Assembly (NCBI GenBank): GCA_038065655.1
Contig: JBBTQO010000001.1
Coordinates: forward strand, 2,517-66,516
Direction: 5' to 3'
DNA: 64,000 nt
Source: Patescibacteria group bacterium
GTDB taxonomy: Bacteria; Patescibacteriota; Minisyncoccia; Phycocordibacterales; WO2-35-19
Below are positions 2,154-63,998 of the stretch, piece after piece; position 1 is the first letter of the stretch; each line of letters begins with the position of its first letter. The notes beneath the pieces are model-generated. The model saw only the letters and a list, made by a program, of their open reading frames with translations. It did no database searches and had not been told where the DNA came from. A program made the position numbers and the translations under genes.

Positions 2154-2642
2154 ATGAATGAAATTAGATTTAGTCAACCAGTTAGAGAAACTCCACCAGT
2201 AGAAAGTTCTTTGCCACAACCACCCAAAACTCCTTTTTTAAAAACTTTCTTTAAAATTGTCGGCTTGATTGTTGTTTTTGGTTTGATCATTTATGGAGCA
2301 ATACTTGTAAAGGGCAATTTTTTGGATAACTCAATTGAGGCTAGAAGTTCTTCTTACAGCGCCGTGTTTCTCATAAACGGGCAAGTTTATTTTGGCAAAA
2401 TGGTTAAAAATAATAATGAAGAAATAGTTTTAAATGATGTGTATTATCTTCAAGTAAACTCCGACAATCTTTCGGGAGGTCAGACAAATGCTCTAAACCA
2501 ATCGACCTTTAATTTGGTCAAACTGGGCAATGAACTTCATGGCCCAACCGATGAACTCTTTGTCAATAAAACGCAGGTTATATTTTATGAATATTTGAAA
2601 GATGATAGCAAAGTAGTGCAGTCTATAAAAAACTATAAATAA
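2154..2642 (+). CDS. Hypothetical membrane-anchored protein
   Basis: 162-aa ORF with a single TM helix (IVGLIVVFGLIIYGAILV) after a Pro-rich N-terminus; no recognisable family. Confidence 0.4.
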   Translation: MNEIRFSQPVRETPPVESSLPQPPKTPFLKTFFKIVGLIVVFGLIIYGAILVKGNFLDNSIEARSSSYSAVFLINGQVYFGKMVKNNNEEIVLNDVYYLQVNSDNLSGGQTNALNQSTFNLVKLGNELHGPTDELFVNKTQVIFYEYLKDDSKVVQSIKNYK

Positions 2643-2644
2643 TA

Positions 2645-2661
2645 CAGAAGGTGCCTTTCTG
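2645..2661. repeat. REP-like hairpin (family 1) upstream of RAYT: cagaagg-tgc-ctttctg
   Basis: 7-bp stem (one mismatch), 3-nt loop, 29 bp upstream of RAYT start; same motif at 2848-2864 and 3352-3368. Confidence 0.6.
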
Positions 2662-2689
2662 CAATTTACAATATATATAGAATAGGGGA

Positions 2690-3349
2690 ATGAGAAATAG
2701 AGATTATAAAATTTTTGCTCCAGATAGTTATTATCACGTATTTAATCGTGGAAATGCCAAAATGAAAATTTTTCTAGACCAGGAAGATTACAGATTTTTT
2801 CTTTGGCGTTTAAAAGAAAACTTATTTCCTGAACAAGTTGAAAAAAACAGAAGGGCACCTTCTGCAAATCTCCCAAAAGAAAGATATGTTCGCAAACTTC
2901 TACCGCCCAATTCGTTCAGTTTGATATGCTATTGTCTTATGCCGAATCATTTTCATCTTTTAATTAGGCAAAATTCTAAAATAAAAATAAGCGAACTAAT
3001 GCTTCGTGTTTGTGGTAGTTATGCAAAGTATTTTAATAAAAAATATGATCGTGTTGGGTCACTTTTTCAAGATCAATTCAAGGCTACTTTGGTAAACAAA
3101 AATAATTATTTGCTTTGGTTATCTGCGTATATACACGAAAATCCTCGAAAAGGAAAACTGGTAGATGAATTGGGGGATTGGGAATGGAGTAGTTACCTGG
3201 ATTATACGAGTCAAAAGCAAGGTGGTTTCTGTGAAAAGGAAATAATACTGGATCAATTAAACTCTAATGGTTACAAGGCATTCGTTAATCAGAATTTTGG
3301 TAAAAAAAGAGCTATAGAATTAAATGCTTTTCTTTTAGATTTTGAATAG
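2690..3349 (+). CDS. REP-associated tyrosine transposase (RAYT; IS200/IS605-like Y1 transposase, COG1943-type)
   Basis: 219 aa; N-terminal YHVFNRGN motif and HuH motif LMPNHFHLLI, typical of Y1 transposases; flanked on both sides by the same hairpin repeat. Confidence 0.8.
   Translation: MRNRDYKIFAPDSYYHVFNRGNAKMKIFLDQEDYRFFLWRLKENLFPEQVEKNRRAPSANLPKERYVRKLLPPNSFSLICYCLMPNHFHLLIRQNSKIKISELMLRVCGSYAKYFNKKYDRVGSLFQDQFKATLVNKNNYLLWLSAYIHENPRKGKLVDELGDWEWSSYLDYTSQKQGGFCEKEIILDQLNSNGYKAFVNQNFGKKRAIELNAFLLDFE
2848..2864. repeat. REP-like hairpin (family 1) copy inside the RAYT coding sequence: cagaagg-gca-ccttctg
   Basis: Perfect 7-bp stem with 3-nt loop; encodes in-frame residues (..NRRAPSANL..) of the RAYT itself. 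Confidence 0.6.
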
Positions 3350-3351
3350 TA

Positions 3352-3368
3352 CAGAAGGTGCCCTTCTG
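3352..3368. repeat. REP-like hairpin (family 1) downstream of RAYT: cagaagg-tgc-ccttctg
   Basis: Perfect 7-bp stem, 3-nt loop, begins 3 nt after the RAYT stop codon. Confidence 0.6.
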
Positions 3369-3613
3369 TATGGTGTTTTTATCCACTGTTTTTGCTTGAT
3401 AAAAAACCTAGATTTGCCAAAATATAGTTAGATTTATCAGTAGGTTATTAGTTAATAATAGTCTTTTCAAAGCTCCTTATTTTAGGAAGAAAAAAGAATC
3501 CGGATCTTTTTGCAGGTTTGCCGTCCTCGCTAAGCGGGGCACAGGCGAACGGAAAGAGATGGAATGCTGTTTTTTCTTCTTTTAAAACAAGAGGGAATAG
3601 GAAGGACCCAAAT

Positions 3614-7769: not shown

Positions 7770-9659
7770 ATGAATAACATCAGAAATTTCTGTATCATTG
7801 CTCATATTGACCACGGTAAATCTACTCTGGCAGATAGGATGCTTGAGATAACTGGCACCATAGAAGCTCGTAAAATGAAGGCTCAAGTGCTGGATTCTAT
7901 GGAGCTTGAAAGAGAGCGGGGGATTACTATAAAAATGCAACCTGTGCGGATGCTATATCATCCGCAAGCACGAAATCCGAAATCCGAAATCCGAAATTTC
8001 GAATTTGATGCTTCGAATTTAGAATTTGCAAATTCAGAATATATTCTGAATTTGATAGATACCCCCGGCCATATTGATTTTTCATATGAGGTTTCAAGGG
8101 CATTGAAAGCGGTAGAAGGAGCGATTCTTTTGGTTGACGCTACTCAAGGTATTCAAGCGCAAACTTTGTCGGTACTGGCTATGGCTAGAACCCAAGGTTT
8201 GGTTGTTATCCCAGCTTTGAGTAAGTGTGATTCGCCTTTGGCTAGAGTGGAAGAAGTAAAAGCGGAGATAATTTCACTACTTGATTGTCAGGAGGAAGAA
8301 ATAATAGAAACTTCTGGCAAAACAGGGGAGGGAGTGGAAAAACTTTTACTTAATATTATAGAAAAAATTCCAGCGCCAAATCTTGCCAAAGATGCCCTTT
8401 GCCATTTTCCGCTTCAAGCTCTTGTTTTTGATTTTAAATATTCCGCTCATCGGGGTATTATAGTTTTTGCCAGAATAATGAAAGGAGAAGTTTCGGCTAG
8501 AGAAAATTTAATTTTTAGAGTGGCGGGGCAAAAATTTGTGGCCTTGGAAGTGGGTATTTTTAAACCAGATGAAGAAGCTCAAAAATCATTAAAAGCTGGA
8601 GAAACCGGTTATATTGTCACCGGTATTAAAACTCCGGGCATAGTTTCTGTCGGCGATACTATTGGCAAAGAAAAAGAAAATGGCAAAGCCTTAGAAGGTT
8701 ACACCCTGCCAAATCCAGTAGTTTGGGCATCTGTTTTTCCTGAGGATCAAAGCGATTTGGTGGCCCTAAAACAGGCTTTGGCAAAATTGAAATTAACCGA
8801 CTCCTCGCTTTTTTATGAAGAAGAATCATCGGGAGTTTTGGGTAAAGGTTTTAGATGCGGTTTTTTGGGGATGCTTCATTTGGAAATTATTACTGAAAGA
8901 TTGAAAAGGGAATTTGATCTGACTTTGATTATTACTCAACCGTCCATCACTTATCATTTAGAATATAAAAATGGTAAATTTGAAAAAATTTTTTCGCCAG
9001 CCTTTTTCCCGGAAGATGGTTTAATTGAAAAAATAGAAGAACCTTGGGTCAATGTTCACATTATTACCCCTTCTCAATATGTGGGGGGCCTTTTGCCGCT
9101 ACTTTATGAATATGAGGCTGAAATAGTTTCTGCCGAAGGGCATCTTCAAAATGCTCCGATCCCAGAAGATGCCCTTCGGCGGAAAACAAACATCCACACT
9201 CTGATGCCATTAAGGGAGTTGATGCGTGGTTTTTTTGATAAGCTTAAGAGTGTCTCTCAAGGATATGCCTCTCTCTCCTATGAAGAAGCGGGGATGAGGC
9301 GGGCTAATGTCACCAAACTCTGTGTTTTGGTAAATGGAGAAGAAGAACCGTCTCTTTCTCGAGTAGTTTCTAAAAGAATTGTCGAAAGAGAAGCGGAGTC
9401 TATTGTGGAGAAACTTAAAAATCTTTTACCGCGCCAAATGTTTGAGCTCAAAATACAGGCAAAAGCTCTCGGTAGAATCATCGCTTCGCGTTCTATTTCG
9501 GCTTATCGAAAAGATGTTACTCAACATATGTATGGTGGGGACATTACTCGCAAAATGAAGCTTAGAGAAAAACAGAAAAAGGGCAAAAAGAAAATGAAAG
9601 AAAGAGGTAAAATATTGATACCCCAAGATGTTTTTATAAAAATAATGCGCCCCGACTAA
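7770..9659 (+). CDS. lepA: Elongation factor 4 (LepA) with an in-frame low-complexity insertion in the G domain
   Basis: N-terminus NIRNFCIIAHIDHGKSTLADRMLE, DTPGHIDF, C-terminal LepA domain. An extra ~20 aa (PQARNPKSEIRNFEFDASNLEFANSEY) lies before DTPGH; it is encoded by the hairpin plus heptamer tandem repeat at 7944-8046. Confidence 0.9.
   Translation: MNNIRNFCIIAHIDHGKSTLADRMLEITGTIEARKMKAQVLDSMELERERGITIKMQPVRMLYHPQARNPKSEIRNFEFDASNLEFANSEYILNLIDTPGHIDFSYEVSRALKAVEGAILLVDATQGIQAQTLSVLAMARTQGLVVIPALSKCDSPLARVEEVKAEIISLLDCQEEEIIETSGKTGEGVEKLLLNIIEKIPAPNLAKDALCHFPLQALVFDFKYSAHRGIIVFARIMKGEVSARENLIFRVAGQKFVALEVGIFKPDEEAQKSLKAGETGYIVTGIKTPGIVSVGDTIGKEKENGKALEGYTLPNPVVWASVFPEDQSDLVALKQALAKLKLTDSSLFYEEESSGVLGKGFRCGFLGMLHLEIITERLKREFDLTLIITQPSITYHLEYKNGKFEKIFSPAFFPEDGLIEKIEEPWVNVHIITPSQYVGGLLPLLYEYEAEIVSAEGHLQNAPIPEDALRRKTNIHTLMPLRELMRGFFDKLKSVSQGYASLSYEEAGMRRANVTKLCVLVNGEEEPSLSRVVSKRIVEREAESIVEKLKNLLPRQMFELKIQAKALGRIIASRSISAYRKDVTQHMYGGDITRKMKLREKQKKGKKKMKERGKILIPQDVFIKIMRPD
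7944..8046. repeat. Intragenic structured repeat in lepA: 8-bp hairpin, 3.5 x heptamer cgaaatc, palindrome cagaatatattctg
   Basis: tgcggatg-ctatat-catccgca hairpin (7945-7966); tandem cgaaatc cgaaatc cgaaatc cgaaatt (7969-7996); perfect 14-nt palindrome at 8033-8046; shares an aatttagaatt core (opposite orientation) with the repeat in the methyltransferase gene at 28632-28703. Confidence 0.55.
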
Positions 9660-9738
9660 CTCACCCTAAATCCCTCTCTTACCCTAATAGAGGGACTTTC
9701 GAAAACCCCTCTTAAGATAAGAGGGGGTAGAGGGAGTT
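9660..9738. repeat. ~80-bp MITE-like element, copy 1 (terminal inverted repeats aactcaccct / agggagtt; two internal hairpins)
   Basis: Hairpins ccctct...agaggg (9672-9694) and cccctctt...aagagggg (9706-9727) separated by ctttcgaaaac; lies immediately after the lepA stop; near-identical architecture at 14330-14408. Confidence 0.6.
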
Positions 9739-14329: not shown

Positions 14330-14408
14330 CTCCCCCCAACCCCCCTCTTACATTAAGAGGGGGGCTTTCCGAACCCTCTCTTGTTGTAAGAGAGGGCAGG
14401 GTGAGTTA
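14330..14408. repeat. ~80-bp MITE-like element, copy 2 (TIRs aactcccc / agggtgagtt; two internal hairpins)
   Basis: Hairpins cccccctctta...taagagggggg (14340-14364) and ccctctc...gagaggg (14374-14396) separated by ctttccgaac. The right terminus agggtgagtt is the exact reverse complement of the copy-1 left terminus aactcaccct. Confidence 0.6.
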
Positions 14409-16571: not shown

Positions 16572-16600
16572 TAGCTCCTCCAAACGGGGGAGCTGTTTTT
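16572..16600 (+). terminator. Rho-independent terminator after the transglycosylase-like gene
   Basis: agctcc-tccaaacggg-ggagct hairpin followed by TTTTTC. Confidence 0.5.
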
Positions 16601-16668
16601 CTTAGTAAAAGCCAAAGGGCACCTTCTGGGACCGGGGCATTCTGAAGGTGCCCTTTGGCTTTTACTAA
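16600..16668. repeat. 26-bp perfect inverted repeat (REP family-1 doublet) with 17-nt spacer
   Basis: cttagtaaaagccaaagggcaccttc / gaaggtgccctttggcttttactaag; arms contain the gggcaccttctg core of the RAYT-associated hairpin at 2645-3368. Confidence 0.7.
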
Positions 16669-16776
16669 GAGATGGTAGGAACGTCGCACAATATATCTTC
16701 GCGACTCAACCAAAGGTTGGGTCGCGAAAGATAACGCCCATTTTTAGAATAAAATAATTATATTAAAAATATTCCC

Positions 16777-54951: not shown

Positions 54952-55692
54952 TTAGTCGGTTAAATTGTTCCCAACGTCGGACGTTTGGATATCAAAATTG
55001 TTGGGGTTAAGCGATAACCATTCAAATATTTCTTTTTTTAATATTTTTGGATCTACGAAATATTCTGGAAAATCTTTTTTAGACAAAATTTCTTTTTCCA
55101 TTCTATTTTTCCCACAGTAATCTTGATAACTACTCCACCCATAATCTTCTAAAAACTTTTTTGCCTTTTCTATATCTTTGATACCATTTTCTTTCCACAT
55201 TGGATCAATAAGTTTTACTGGATTTAGATGAATGTAAGAAAAAATGTATTTTGAGTATGGATCAGTGTCTACATAAGAACCTTTAAAATTAGTTTCAAAA
55301 AGTCCACCAGTACGTTTATATTTTGTATTGAAATATTTTGAATAAGAAGTGCAAAGTTTTTTCATAAAAAGACTTATTCCGTTCCTTTTGTGTTTCTCAC
55401 TAATGTTGGACGTTTGTTCAGGGGAAATAGTTATGAGGAGATGAAAATGATTTGGCATGAGGACCCATGCACCGATTGAAACAATTGGTTTTCCTCTGTC
55501 AAATTCCCAAACATCTATTTTTCTTCTAACTATGTCCTCTCTAAAGTTAATATATTTTTTTGAGTTAGAGAGATATAGCATTTTTACAAATCTTTTTCTA
55601 TCATAATCATCAAGAAAAATATTTTGTTTACTATTTCCTCTATTATAGAGATGGTAAAACTCACCTTCTACAAAAGGTTCTTTTCTTTGCAT
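54952..55692 (-). CDS. Second REP-associated tyrosine transposase (RAYT; IS200-like Y1 transposase), distinct family from the one at 2690
   Basis: 246 aa; YHLYNRGN and HuH motif LMPNHFHLLITI; flanked by direct copies of cccaa(c/t)gtcggacgtttggatat (54962-54984 within its 3' end; 55713-55736 upstream of the start). Confidence 0.8.
   Translation of the reverse strand: MQRKEPFVEGEFYHLYNRGNSKQNIFLDDYDRKRFVKMLYLSNSKKYINFREDIVRRKIDVWEFDRGKPIVSIGAWVLMPNHFHLLITISPEQTSNISEKHKRNGISLFMKKLCTSYSKYFNTKYKRTGGLFETNFKGSYVDTDPYSKYIFSYIHLNPVKLIDPMWKENGIKDIEKAKKFLEDYGWSSYQDYCGKNRMEKEILSKKDFPEYFVDPKILKKEIFEWLSLNPNNFDIQTSDVGNNLTD
54962..54984. repeat. REP family-2 element (cccaacgtcggacgtttggatat) overlapping the RAYT-2 C-terminal codons
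   Basis: Near-palindromic core aacgtc-g-gacgtt; same sequence at 55713-55736; inverted doublet at 63598-63643. Confidence 0.6.
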
Positions 55693-55712
55693 ATAAATAT
55701 TTTAACACACTT

Positions 55713-55736
55713 CCCAATGTCGGACGTTTGGATATG
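55713..55736. repeat. REP family-2 element (cccaatgtcggacgtttggatatg) between alaS stop and RAYT-2 start
   Basis: Direct repeat of the 54962-54984 copy, 21 bp upstream of the RAYT-2 start codon. Confidence 0.6.
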
Positions 55737-62924: not shown

Positions 62925-63998
62925 TTAATCTATTATACCACCCCCCAAACAAATTTCACCATCATATAAAACCAAAGATTGACCGGGAGAGATGCCTATT
63001 TGAGGTTGGTCAAAAATGACTCTTGTTTGCCCGTCCTTGATTTGAATTTTGCATTTTATTTTTTCTTGACGGTATCGGATGCGACAAGATAAATTTTTGT
63101 TTGGGATTTTTCCGATTAAATTTATATCCTTGATAGAAATTTCTTGGGACAAATTTGACGACCGTCCAAAATGTCGTAACTCTTGTTTTGAACTTACTGT
63201 TATCAAGTTTTTTTCAACATTTTTAGCAATTACATACAAAGGCACTTCGCTCTCTGTTTTTTGGGTAATGGTAAAGCCGTGGCGTTCGCCGATAGTGAAA
63301 AAGAGAGCACCGTTGTGGTGGCCGATTATTTCCCCATCCAGATCTAAAACGTCACCTCTTTTTTGAGGAATATATCTGGCCAAAAATTCTTTCATATTAA
63401 TTTTGCCCAAAAAGCAAAGCCCTTGGCTATCCTTCCTTGTTTCTTGTGGCAGGCCAAATTTACCTGCAAGTTTTCGAACTTCTGATTTTTGCAGATGGCC
63501 GATAGGAAAAAGAATGTGTTTAAGTTGTTCTTGGGTTAAGGTCCAGAGGAAGTATGATTGGTCTTTGTTTTTATCAATACCTTCAAGAAGCTGATTTCCC
63601 AATGTCCGACGTTTGCAACGGTTCCCAACGTCGGACATTGGGGGCATTCTTGCATAGTGTCCGGTAGCTACAAAATCAGCGCCATTTTTTAAAGCAAATT
63701 TTAGAAAGTGGCCAAACTTTATTTCTTTATTGCACATCACGTCTGGATTGGGAGTCCGCCCTTGCCTGTATTCATCAATCATATAATCAACCACTTCTTT
63801 TTTATATTCTTTTTCTAAATCAAGAGTGATGAAAGGAATATTTAAAATCGCGGCCACCTTCATGGCGCTCCGCCTATCTTCCTTCCAACTGCAAGGATAA
63901 CCTTCTGGTGTCCAAGCCTTAATAAAAACTCCAGTCACATCATAGCCATCTTTTTGCAACAAAGTTACTGAAACAGCGCTATCTACTCCGCCCGACAA
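62925..63998 (-). CDS. mnmA: tRNA-specific 2-thiouridylase MnmA (5' end runs off the window), carrying an in-frame REP family-2 doublet
   Basis: PP-loop SGGVDSAV, ..GHYAR.., NKDQSYFL, C-terminal domain. The ORF-finder start is a TTG; the true start is likely beyond coordinate 64000. The insert MPPMSDVGNRCKRRTLGN is encoded by the palindromic repeat at 63598-63643. Confidence 0.85.
   Translation of the reverse strand: MSGGVDSAVSVTLLQKDGYDVTGVFIKAWTPEGYPCSWKEDRRSAMKVAAILNIPFITLDLEKEYKKEVVDYMIDEYRQGRTPNPDVMCNKEIKFGHFLKFALKNGADFVATGHYARMPPMSDVGNRCKRRTLGNQLLEGIDKNKDQSYFLWTLTQEQLKHILFPIGHLQKSEVRKLAGKFGLPQETRKDSQGLCFLGKINMKEFLARYIPQKRGDVLDLDGEIIGHHNGALFFTIGERHGFTITQKTESEVPLYVIAKNVEKNLITVSSKQELRHFGRSSNLSQEISIKDINLIGKIPNKNLSCRIRYRQEKIKCKIQIKDGQTRVIFDQPQIGISPGQSLVLYDGEICLGGGIID
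63598..63643. repeat. REP family-2 inverted doublet (perfect 16-bp arms cccaatgtccgacgtt / aacgtcggacattggg) inserted in-frame in mnmA
   Basis: Arms are exact reverse complements separated by tgcaacggttccc; 48 nt total, a multiple of 3, in a variable loop of MnmA between GHYAR and NKDQSYFL. Confidence 0.7.

Follow-up and report, generated by a model that had tools for sequence, protein, structure and literature searches.

Repetitive extragenic palindromes (REPs) and the REP-associated tyrosine transposases (RAYTs, or TnpA-REP) are among the few long-lived, vertically inherited systems of mobile repeats in bacteria. A survey of 1354 species with complete genomes found that Y1 genes outside insertion sequences (IS) are typical of large genomes; it took the motif Y---NP as the signature of class 2 (TnpA-REP-like) enzymes and Y---Q as that of class 1 (IS200), and described REPs inserted in frame within tnpA-REP as unique to subclass 2.4 of Cyanobacteria and Bacteroidetes (Quentin, Siguier, Chandler and Fichant 2018, PMC6006769). 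For subclass 2.1 the same survey did not find REPs and for subclass 2.6 it reported atypical structures, and neither its text nor its supplements mention candidate phyla. REPs lying in frame within other genes have been documented elsewhere (Di Nocera 2013, PMC3733652), and REPs can act as terminators or stabilisers (PMC3733652). Here we consider a stretch of 64,000 nucleotides, called the window in what follows, from contig JBBTQO010000001.1 of a Patescibacteria groundwater bacterium with a genome of about 37% GC. In this window a gene for a RAYT-like protein is bracketed by two copies of a short hairpin and carries a third copy in its own reading frame.

Our preferred reading, with a probability of about 0.68, is that the locus is a REPtron-like unit, in which a domesticated class-2 Y1 enzyme is paired with non-canonical, footless hairpins and in which an in-frame REP lies in the enzyme's own gene. 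The arrangement that defines a REPtron, a gene flanked by its own palindromes, is found both in the window and in most of the homologous loci compared.

A RAYT-like gene and its matching hairpins

The assignment of the open reading frame (ORF) to the Y1 HUH enzymes of the RAYT/TnpA-REP type is supported by profiles, motifs and predicted fold. The protein scores 46.1 bits with the Pfam profile PF01797 (Y1_Tnp) against a cut-off of 23 (E 6.5e-12), as a first-pass annotation of the DNA had anticipated, and the alignment covers residues 65-151; it starts only at residue 65 owing to an insertion of about 25 residues ahead of strand b2. The sequence YIHENP, with the family consensus YIHxNP, carries the class-2 signature. 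Among the NCBIfam models REP_Tyr_transpos scores best, and not IS200. More than 4271 relatives were returned by a database search, nearly all of 200-235 aa, and those that are named belong to metagenome-assembled genomes (MAGs) of Patescibacteria (Zambryski-, Doudna- and Paceibacterota). In an alignment of 35 relatives H87, H89 and Y147 (YIHxNP) are invariant, and the region between NLFPE and Y-x-RK-x-LPP is hypervariable in both length and sequence. The AlphaFold (AF2) model has a mean predicted local distance difference score (pLDDT) of 82.7 and a confident core, with HuH on b3 and Y147 on helix 138-154, while loop 54-75, which holds the residues encoded by the hairpin, is of low confidence. 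Its best Foldseek match is chain A of 4ER8, the E. coli TnpA-REP bound to a REP hairpin (E 5.6e-7, TM-score 0.70), and the top 30 matches are all TnpA-REP, ISDra2, IS608 or IS200 TnpA. When the PDB was searched by protein sequence there was no match, and a profile search gave 4ER8 as a marginal one (E 0.57). Judged by motifs alone (NHFH, FQ, YIHxNP, W-SSY), the family would match no single subclass of Quentin et al. cleanly.

The gene is present in a single copy in the window, where the only other gene of the kind is a paralog at 35% identity, and its gene context is unchanged in all 20 contigs. The order RAYT-TPR-MurJ-LepA is found again in locus L211 of a Zambryskibacteria MAG (GCA_043799105.1), where the protein is 85% identical, and this synteny argues for vertical descent.

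The first-pass annotation had placed copies of the hairpin CAGAAGG-NNN-CCTTCTG before, inside and after the gene. All three lie where it put them (Table 1), and two of them are perfect: CAGAAGGGCACCTTCTG (2848-2864) and CAGAAGGTGCCCTTCTG (3352-3368) each form a 7-bp stem without mismatch around a loop of 3 nt, GCA in the former and TGC in the latter, and the stem of the latter can be extended to 9 bp (3350-3370). The upstream copy, with loop TGC, departs from the claim by a single C>T stem mismatch in its 3' arm. Exact matches to the pattern number 2 in the window against 0.00 expected from 100 shuffles, and with up to 2 mismatches, which are needed for the upstream copy to be detected, there are 5 matches against 0.12 expected. 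Taken alone, the upstream hairpin folds weakly (-2.8 kcal/mol, z -0.9), and the downstream hairpin folds at -7.3 kcal/mol (z -5.9). In strain L008, whose DNA is 92.6% identical and whose protein is identical, the upstream hairpin is perfect, and the mismatch in the window is therefore recent. With loops in the order TGC, GCA, TGC, the internal copy is inverted with respect to both flanking copies, which agrees with the earlier statement that copies occur in both orientations, and it leaves the reading frame of 219 aa intact.

The upstream hairpin begins 2 nt past the stop codon of the preceding ORF and ends 28 nt before the ATG at 2690, and the downstream hairpin follows the TAG after 2 nt, or after 0 nt when the extended stem is counted. 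A run of T stands 3' of the downstream hairpin, which may well also terminate transcription, and the internal hairpin with its run of A resembles an intrinsic terminator on the antisense strand. An Rfam scan of the window gave no RNA family at any hairpin and a tRNA as its sole match.

How closely such hairpins belong to their gene can be seen from 80 homologous metagenome loci; in the 65 that are complete, the ORF was compared with each flank and the flanks with one another. A shared word was defined as an exact match of at least 12 nt, and pairings between different loci served as the null. The two flanks of the same locus share such a word in 51 of the 65 loci, as compared with 3 of 638 cross-locus controls, and the word is nearly always palindromic. 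The upstream flank shares a word with the ORF in 31 of the 65 loci (controls 14/638, or 2%), and the downstream flank in 22 (controls 1%). The sequence of the palindrome varies between loci and agrees within each locus; a typical stem has 6-10 bp and a loop of 3 nt, and the median distance of the hairpin is 27.5 nt from the start codon on the upstream side and 7 nt from the stop codon downstream. From the presence of a locus-specific palindrome on both flanks in 51 of 65 loci follows that the hairpins are the cognate partners of the enzyme, as had been proposed for the window.

One further observation concerns the orthologous flanking hairpins. When 2645-2661 in the window is compared with L211 258-277, L212 44-63 and L213 500-519, stems and outer bases are kept and the 3-nt loop is inverted between TGC and GCA, three changes that come together. 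The flipped loops indicate loop inversion, template switching or exact replacement by an oppositely oriented copy as candidate events.

Copies inside the gene

Internal copies were sought with each locus's own palindrome core in the 55 loci that have a flanking pair. They occur in 21 of these (about 40%), and the 22 copies are all found at two positions. Site A, the one that is occupied in the window, precedes HuH by 26-35 codons, or by 23-37 codons when the search for perfect hairpins is included, and site B lies 67-76 codons after HuH, directly past the helix with the catalytic tyrosine. Both sites are filled in one locus, and in another locus site A holds a doublet. The two sites recur across homologs at 35-85% identity. 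The flanking DNA (±3 kb, roughly 330 kb in all) contains these cores only about 7 times, which makes the gene about 30-fold enriched in them. The first-pass annotation regarded a REP within the transposase gene as unusual, and this was an overstatement, in view both of its documented occurrence in subclass 2.4 (PMC6006769) and of its presence in about 40% of the loci of this family.

The part of the protein between the catalytic motifs is constant in length, with a distance from HuH to Y of 60 aa in 64 of the 65 loci that have both motifs and of 61 aa in L079. From the N-terminal NRG motif to HuH there are 46-79 aa, and the loop at site A has 0-33 extra residues, often without a recognisable hairpin. 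The encoded peptides (RRAPS, GRPLH, TGSRPV, LQGPTLQ and others) are unrelated between loci, and what the copies have in common is DNA. As the peptide is not conserved between loci, any constraint must act on nucleic acid. The orientation of the internal copy with respect to the flanks is inconsistent from locus to locus. Matches of 11 nt between the flanks and the HuH-Y interval are few and AT-rich, and we treated them as chance.

To exemplify the upkeep of the internal copy, consider four close relatives with protein identities of 85%, 81%, 74% and 73% (BLASTP). The sequence ACAGAAGGGCACCTTCTGCA stands at the same place in the window and in L211, L212 and L213, despite insertions and deletions in neighbouring codons, and in the codon alignments with these three the hairpin codons are identical at 20-21 of 21 nt, as compared with 58-71% of third positions elsewhere. 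In L214 the upstream, internal and downstream copies all have the stem CACAAGG/CCTTGTG, a compensatory double change that is common to all of them, and the 3' arm of the internal copy has one further mismatch (CCTTGCG). Because this stem change is common to all copies, and because stems are kept while loops flip, the copies evolve in concert. Replacement or conversion could bring this about, and so could selection on all copies together to match the enzyme. We also considered the peptide RRAPS as the main conserved object and rejected it, since peptides differ between loci, the DNA matches the local flanks, and L214 has changed both arms.

Under the REPtron-like reading, these observations would be accounted for in the following way. 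A single-copy, vertically inherited class-2 Y1 HUH endonuclease would be paired with cognate short palindromes, and, by analogy with E. coli TnpA-REP and IS608 TnpA, it would bind the hairpin in single-stranded form and cut and rejoin DNA beside it. Such activity would spread hairpins, mostly as inverted doublets of the REPIN type, and in gene-dense genomes these doublets would often land in frame within coding sequences. The copy in the enzyme's own gene would then be an in-frame REP in a disordered surface loop that tolerates extra residues. Simple decay does not describe this copy, because its nucleotides stay identical and its changes accompany those of the flanking copies; either it would be replaced or converted again and again from the pool of REPs, or it would be kept as a site for the enzyme.

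Related repeats elsewhere

With at most one mismatch allowed, the window has 7 copies of the 12-nt core GAAGGTGCCCTT, where 0.24 would be expected; they are the three singlets associated with the gene and the four arms of two inverted doublets (Table 1). The doublet in lepA folds at -23.3 kcal/mol (z -7.2) and the intergenic doublet at -31.5 kcal/mol (z -10). The 17-nt loops of the two doublets are homologous, one as the reverse complement of the other, and the differences between their arms are compensatory.

Table 1. Positions of the RAYT-like genes, hairpins and doublets in the window
Feature	Position	Strand	Remarks
Upstream hairpin	2645..2661	+	CAGAAGGTGCCTTTCTG; CAGAAGG-TGC-CTTTCTG, one stem mismatch; orthologous hairpins upstream in L211, L212, L213
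RAYT-like Y1 HUH gene, 219 aa	2690..3349	+	HuH = H87-F-H89; catalytic Y147 in YIHENP; W-SSY tail motif
Internal in-frame hairpin	2847..2866	+	ACAGAAGG-GCA-CCTTCTGCA; codons 52-58, NRRAPSA; aB-b2 loop (site A)
Downstream hairpin	3350..3370	+	TACAGAAGG-TGC-CCTTCTGTA, then GGTGTTTTTA; terminator-like; abuts TAG stop
REPIN-like doublet	9133..9179	+	CCGAAGGGCATCTTC-N17-GAAGATGCCCTTCGG; hairpin core, in frame in lepA (ORF 7770-9659)
Intergenic REPIN-like doublet	16601..16669		26-bp perfect stem, 17-nt loop; arms carry GAAGGTGCCCTT
Second RAYT-like paralog, 246 aa	54952-55692	-	35% identical; NHFH / YIHLNP / WSSY
Inverted doublet of the second paralog's motif	63596-63644	-	CCCAATGTCCGACGTTGGG ... AAACGTCGGACATTGGG; in ORF 62925-63998 (-)

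The syntenic locus L211, whose LepA has 80% identity, is shorter by exactly 30 nt (10 codons) at the lepA site, where arm-like native sequence, GCCGAAGGGTATCTT, is already present. This suggests that the doublet arose by insertion beside an arm-like target or by templated copying of adjacent sequence, and the in-frame difference of 30 nt in presence and absence argues for recent mobility. Compared with Thermus EF4, the LepA of the window has a net gain of 8 residues, which lie in a loop.

When contigs were scanned for the pattern AGGGCAYCTTC-N14-20-GAAGRTGCCCT, the result was dominated by an actinomycete repeat with the same core, and four loci among the matches listed were useful (L120, L159, L161 and L209). 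In L120 (4985-5029) a doublet nearly identical to that of lepA lies in a 1024-aa ORF of a Saccharibacteria MAG and is translated in the frame used for the lepA copy. In L159 (4047-4091) a homolog of the intergenic doublet lies inside a 363-aa ORF of the Hainich Patescibacteria MAG H43-bin098_1. The matches listed also include two doublets in spacers between genes, one of them in a further genome and built of the exact RAYT singlet, the other in a second Saccharibacteria MAG. None of the 120 pattern-match loci of 8 kb among the matches listed has a RAYT-like gene. The near-identical doublet in Saccharibacteria had suggested that the lepA element might be an ancient conserved feature of LepA in the candidate phyla radiation (CPR); we rejected this, since the doublet in Saccharibacteria lies in another gene and the 30 nt are absent from the syntenic LepA.

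The actinomycete repeat is a doublet, GGAAGGGCACCTTC-loop-GAAGGTGCCCTTCC, which occurs in many copies in Catellatospora, Micromonospora, Amycolatopsis and other actinomycetes (L091-L210; for example L091 6556-6595 and L103 37-76 and 847-886). It has a core of 13-14 nt in common with the Patescibacteria hairpins and a different, self-pairing loop, and the common core may reflect convergence or an old shared type of repeat.

In the window, the intergenic doublet sits between a terminator-like hairpin, CTCCTCCAAACGGGGGAGCTGTTTTT (16577-16600), and a hairpin CGCGACTCAACCAAAGGTTGGGTCGCG (16701-16727), and the 220-nt spacer around it is almost wholly structured. The other strong hairpins of the window belong to different sequence families. 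One GC-rich family, (C)CCCTCTTA...TAAGAGGG(G), has three copies (9706-9726, 14340-14364 and 14374-14396), one of them 47 nt past the lepA stop, and its members are probably terminators or a further repeat family.

The second paralog scores 20.9 bits with Pfam Y1_Tnp, slightly under the cut-off, and is accompanied by a motif of its own. This motif, ATCCAAACGTCCGAC[AG]TTGGGAA, stands 19 nt before the start codon (55711-55733) and again in the 3' end of the ORF (54968-54990), and a degenerate copy lies right after HuH, at about 55400-55420, in a part of the protein with about 11 extra residues; this is the position typical of subclass 2.4. The inverted doublet of the motif is translated in frame as PPMSDVGNRCKRRTLGN, between GHYAR and a KDQSYFL motif, in an ORF that, as read from its protein sequence, is presumably mnmA. 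By the open frame through the repeat, this putative mnmA is a second housekeeping gene with an in-frame repeat.

Alternative readings and known systems

Several observations weigh against the REPtron-like reading. The top NCBIfam model for the protein is NF047646 (REP_Tyr_transpos) with 53 bits, which is under the equivalog cut-off of 80 bits for this model, and none of 64 flanking hairpins has GT[AG]G or C[TC]AC at the foot of its stem; many are instead of the form NCA(R)AGG...CCT(Y)TGN. Because of this missing foot and of the score below the RAYT cut-off, the earlier identification as a RAYT has to be narrowed: the protein is a Y1 HUH enzyme of the RAYT/TnpA-REP type, and it resembles a RAYT without being a canonical one. 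The exact singlet hairpin is confined, within the 64 kb, to the RAYT-like gene, and the dispersed doublets, whose link to this enzyme we infer, share only a core of 12-13 nt with it. The earlier suggestion of an active or recently active system keeps the in-frame 30-nt difference in lepA on its side and lacks further exact copies, as only core-sharing doublets are present elsewhere in the window. Copies also seem sparse (the 64 kb contain 2 doublets, and the homolog flanks have about 7 additional copies in about 330 kb), the second paralog means that more than one system is present, and the downstream hairpin could simply be a terminator. A regulatory role of the internal copy is something that we only infer.

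This last point leads to a refinement of the REPtron-like reading, in which the internal hairpin has been selected as a cis-element and is not a tolerated passenger. It would serve the enzyme or the hairpin RNA as an operator or processing site in the control of the gene. Such control could rest on binding to mRNA or single-stranded DNA, on antisense termination, or on an event in which a flanking and the internal copy are cut and rejoined and the gene is switched or truncated. Conservation at the nucleotide level inside a hypervariable loop rich in insertions and deletions, the change in step with the flanking copies in L214, the recurrence of two positions across homologs at 35-85% identity, the roughly 30-fold enrichment over the surrounding ±3 kb, and the resemblance of the internal hairpin and its A-run to an antisense terminator would all be expected from such a role. 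However, about 60% of the loci with flanking hairpins have no internal copy, the orientation with respect to the flanks varies, and the loop of 0-33 residues at site A is often free of hairpins, as insertion followed by decay would make it. Similar repeats are moreover in frame in the unrelated genes lepA and putative mnmA, as if insertion into permissive loops were a general habit, and local hopping with conversion could yield the same pattern. On balance we regard control by the internal hairpin as conceivable and rather doubtful. A broader version, in which the internal hairpin is a selected cis-site at one of two fixed positions that co-evolves with the flanks, and in which REP-type repeats live largely in coding sequences, we consider unlikely; it would go against the reported tie of non-IS Y1 genes to large genomes.

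The layout of the module, with a hairpin, about 28 nt, tnpA, about 7 nt and a second hairpin within about 730 bp, is also that of IS200, and one could take it for an autonomous IS200-like insertion sequence whose flanking hairpins are the subterminal structures of its left and right ends. Like TnpA of the IS200/IS605 family (IS608, ISDra2), the protein has the Y1 fold and its catalytic motifs and presumably recognises single-stranded hairpins, and the fold matches include IS608, ISDra2 and IS200 TnpA. In contrast to that family, its tyrosine motif has NP and not Q, the NCBIfam IS200 model gives it 13.4 bits against a cut-off of 55, there is no TnpB-like neighbour in the contigs examined, and near-identical elements in multiple copies were not found, the sole paralog in the window being only 35% identical. 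The gene furthermore lies at one and the same chromosomal site in every contig and in the relative at 85% identity, and its two ends carry the same near-perfect palindrome instead of distinct imperfect hairpins. It is also conceivable in principle that the hairpins are ordinary terminators or RNA stabilisers that have nothing to do with the enzyme, the internal copy being a coincidence: both flanking hairpins come right after stop codons, the downstream one is followed by a T-run, and REPs with such functions are documented (PMC3733652). This would leave unexplained why the same locus-specific palindrome flanks the gene and recurs inside it in dozens of loci, why the copies undergo concerted compensatory change and why lepA has a doublet, and it does not fit with the other strong hairpins of the window being of different sequence families. 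Synteny, motif class, co-variation and internal copies taken together make the insertion sequence very improbable, and hairpins unrelated to the enzyme are more improbable still.

The interest of the locus can be stated briefly. A Patescibacteria genome of about 37% GC has two RAYT-like genes within 64 kb. In the literature searched, no paper was found that links REP/RAYT systems with Patescibacteria, which bears out the first-pass remark that a system in this phylum deserves notice. The in-gene hairpin, described in the published survey as unique to one subclass, is here frequent, confined to two positions and conserved in nucleotide sequence. With about 0.75 kb, three identical sites and an enzyme of 219 aa, the locus is a compact natural system that suits the question of passenger versus control element. 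Were the internal copy a selected cis-site, regulation or rearrangement of the gene by the enzyme or the RNA hairpin would become possible; flank and internal copy might, for example, be cut and rejoined in a way coupled to replication, or antisense termination might take place. The repeats in lepA and the putative mnmA show that loops of core proteins in streamlined genomes can be remodelled by repeats of the REP type, and under the selected-site reading such repeats would shape protein loops in ultra-small, gene-dense genomes.

Among the described systems, the E. coli REPtron with TnpA-REP (RayT/YafM, 4ER8) has the same Y1 HUH fold with HuH and Y---NP, and it is likewise a single-copy gene at a fixed chromosomal position, bracketed by cognate palindromes (REP/BIME) and with inverted doublets elsewhere. 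The window protein is only about 13% identical to it and has about 60 additional residues at the C-terminal end as well as a variable loop ahead of b2, and the window hairpins differ from E. coli REPs by the missing GTAG foot, stems of 7-9 bp, loops of 3 nt and an apparently low copy number. In the REPIN-RAYT systems of Pseudomonas and Enterobacteria (Bertels and Rainey 2011; groups 2 and 3) there are also inverted doublets that form a long hairpin with compensatory arms, and there, too, the RAYT gene is inherited vertically and present once. Extragenic copies number tens to hundreds in those systems; here a few copies are visible, and several of these are intragenic and in frame. For the Rickettsia palindromic elements (RPEs) we know of no cognate transposase. 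Like intragenic REPs, they are palindromes in frame in housekeeping genes, where they add 10-30 residues in loops (Ogata 2000), and the lepA repeat similarly adds whole codons (30 nt) with respect to its ortholog in L211. RPEs are however about 100-150 bp long, and the window repeats are 47-69 nt with matching RAYT-like genes in the same window.

Subclass 2.4, or group 4 of Bertels, likewise has frame-preserving cognate REPs in tnpA-REP, a variable peripheral region and the HuH motif NH[IFV]H, and the degenerate copy in the second paralog is at the position of this subclass. The internal copies of the present family, in contrast, stand before HuH or after the Y helix, outside the constant HuH-Y interval; the family has FQ (FQDQF) and not WQ, its hairpins have neither GT[AG]G nor the 'double foot' of REPs in that subclass, and it belongs to another phylum. 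The kind of system is already known, and what is new is the phylum, the insertion positions, the type of hairpin and the evidence that the internal copy is maintained at the level of its nucleotides.

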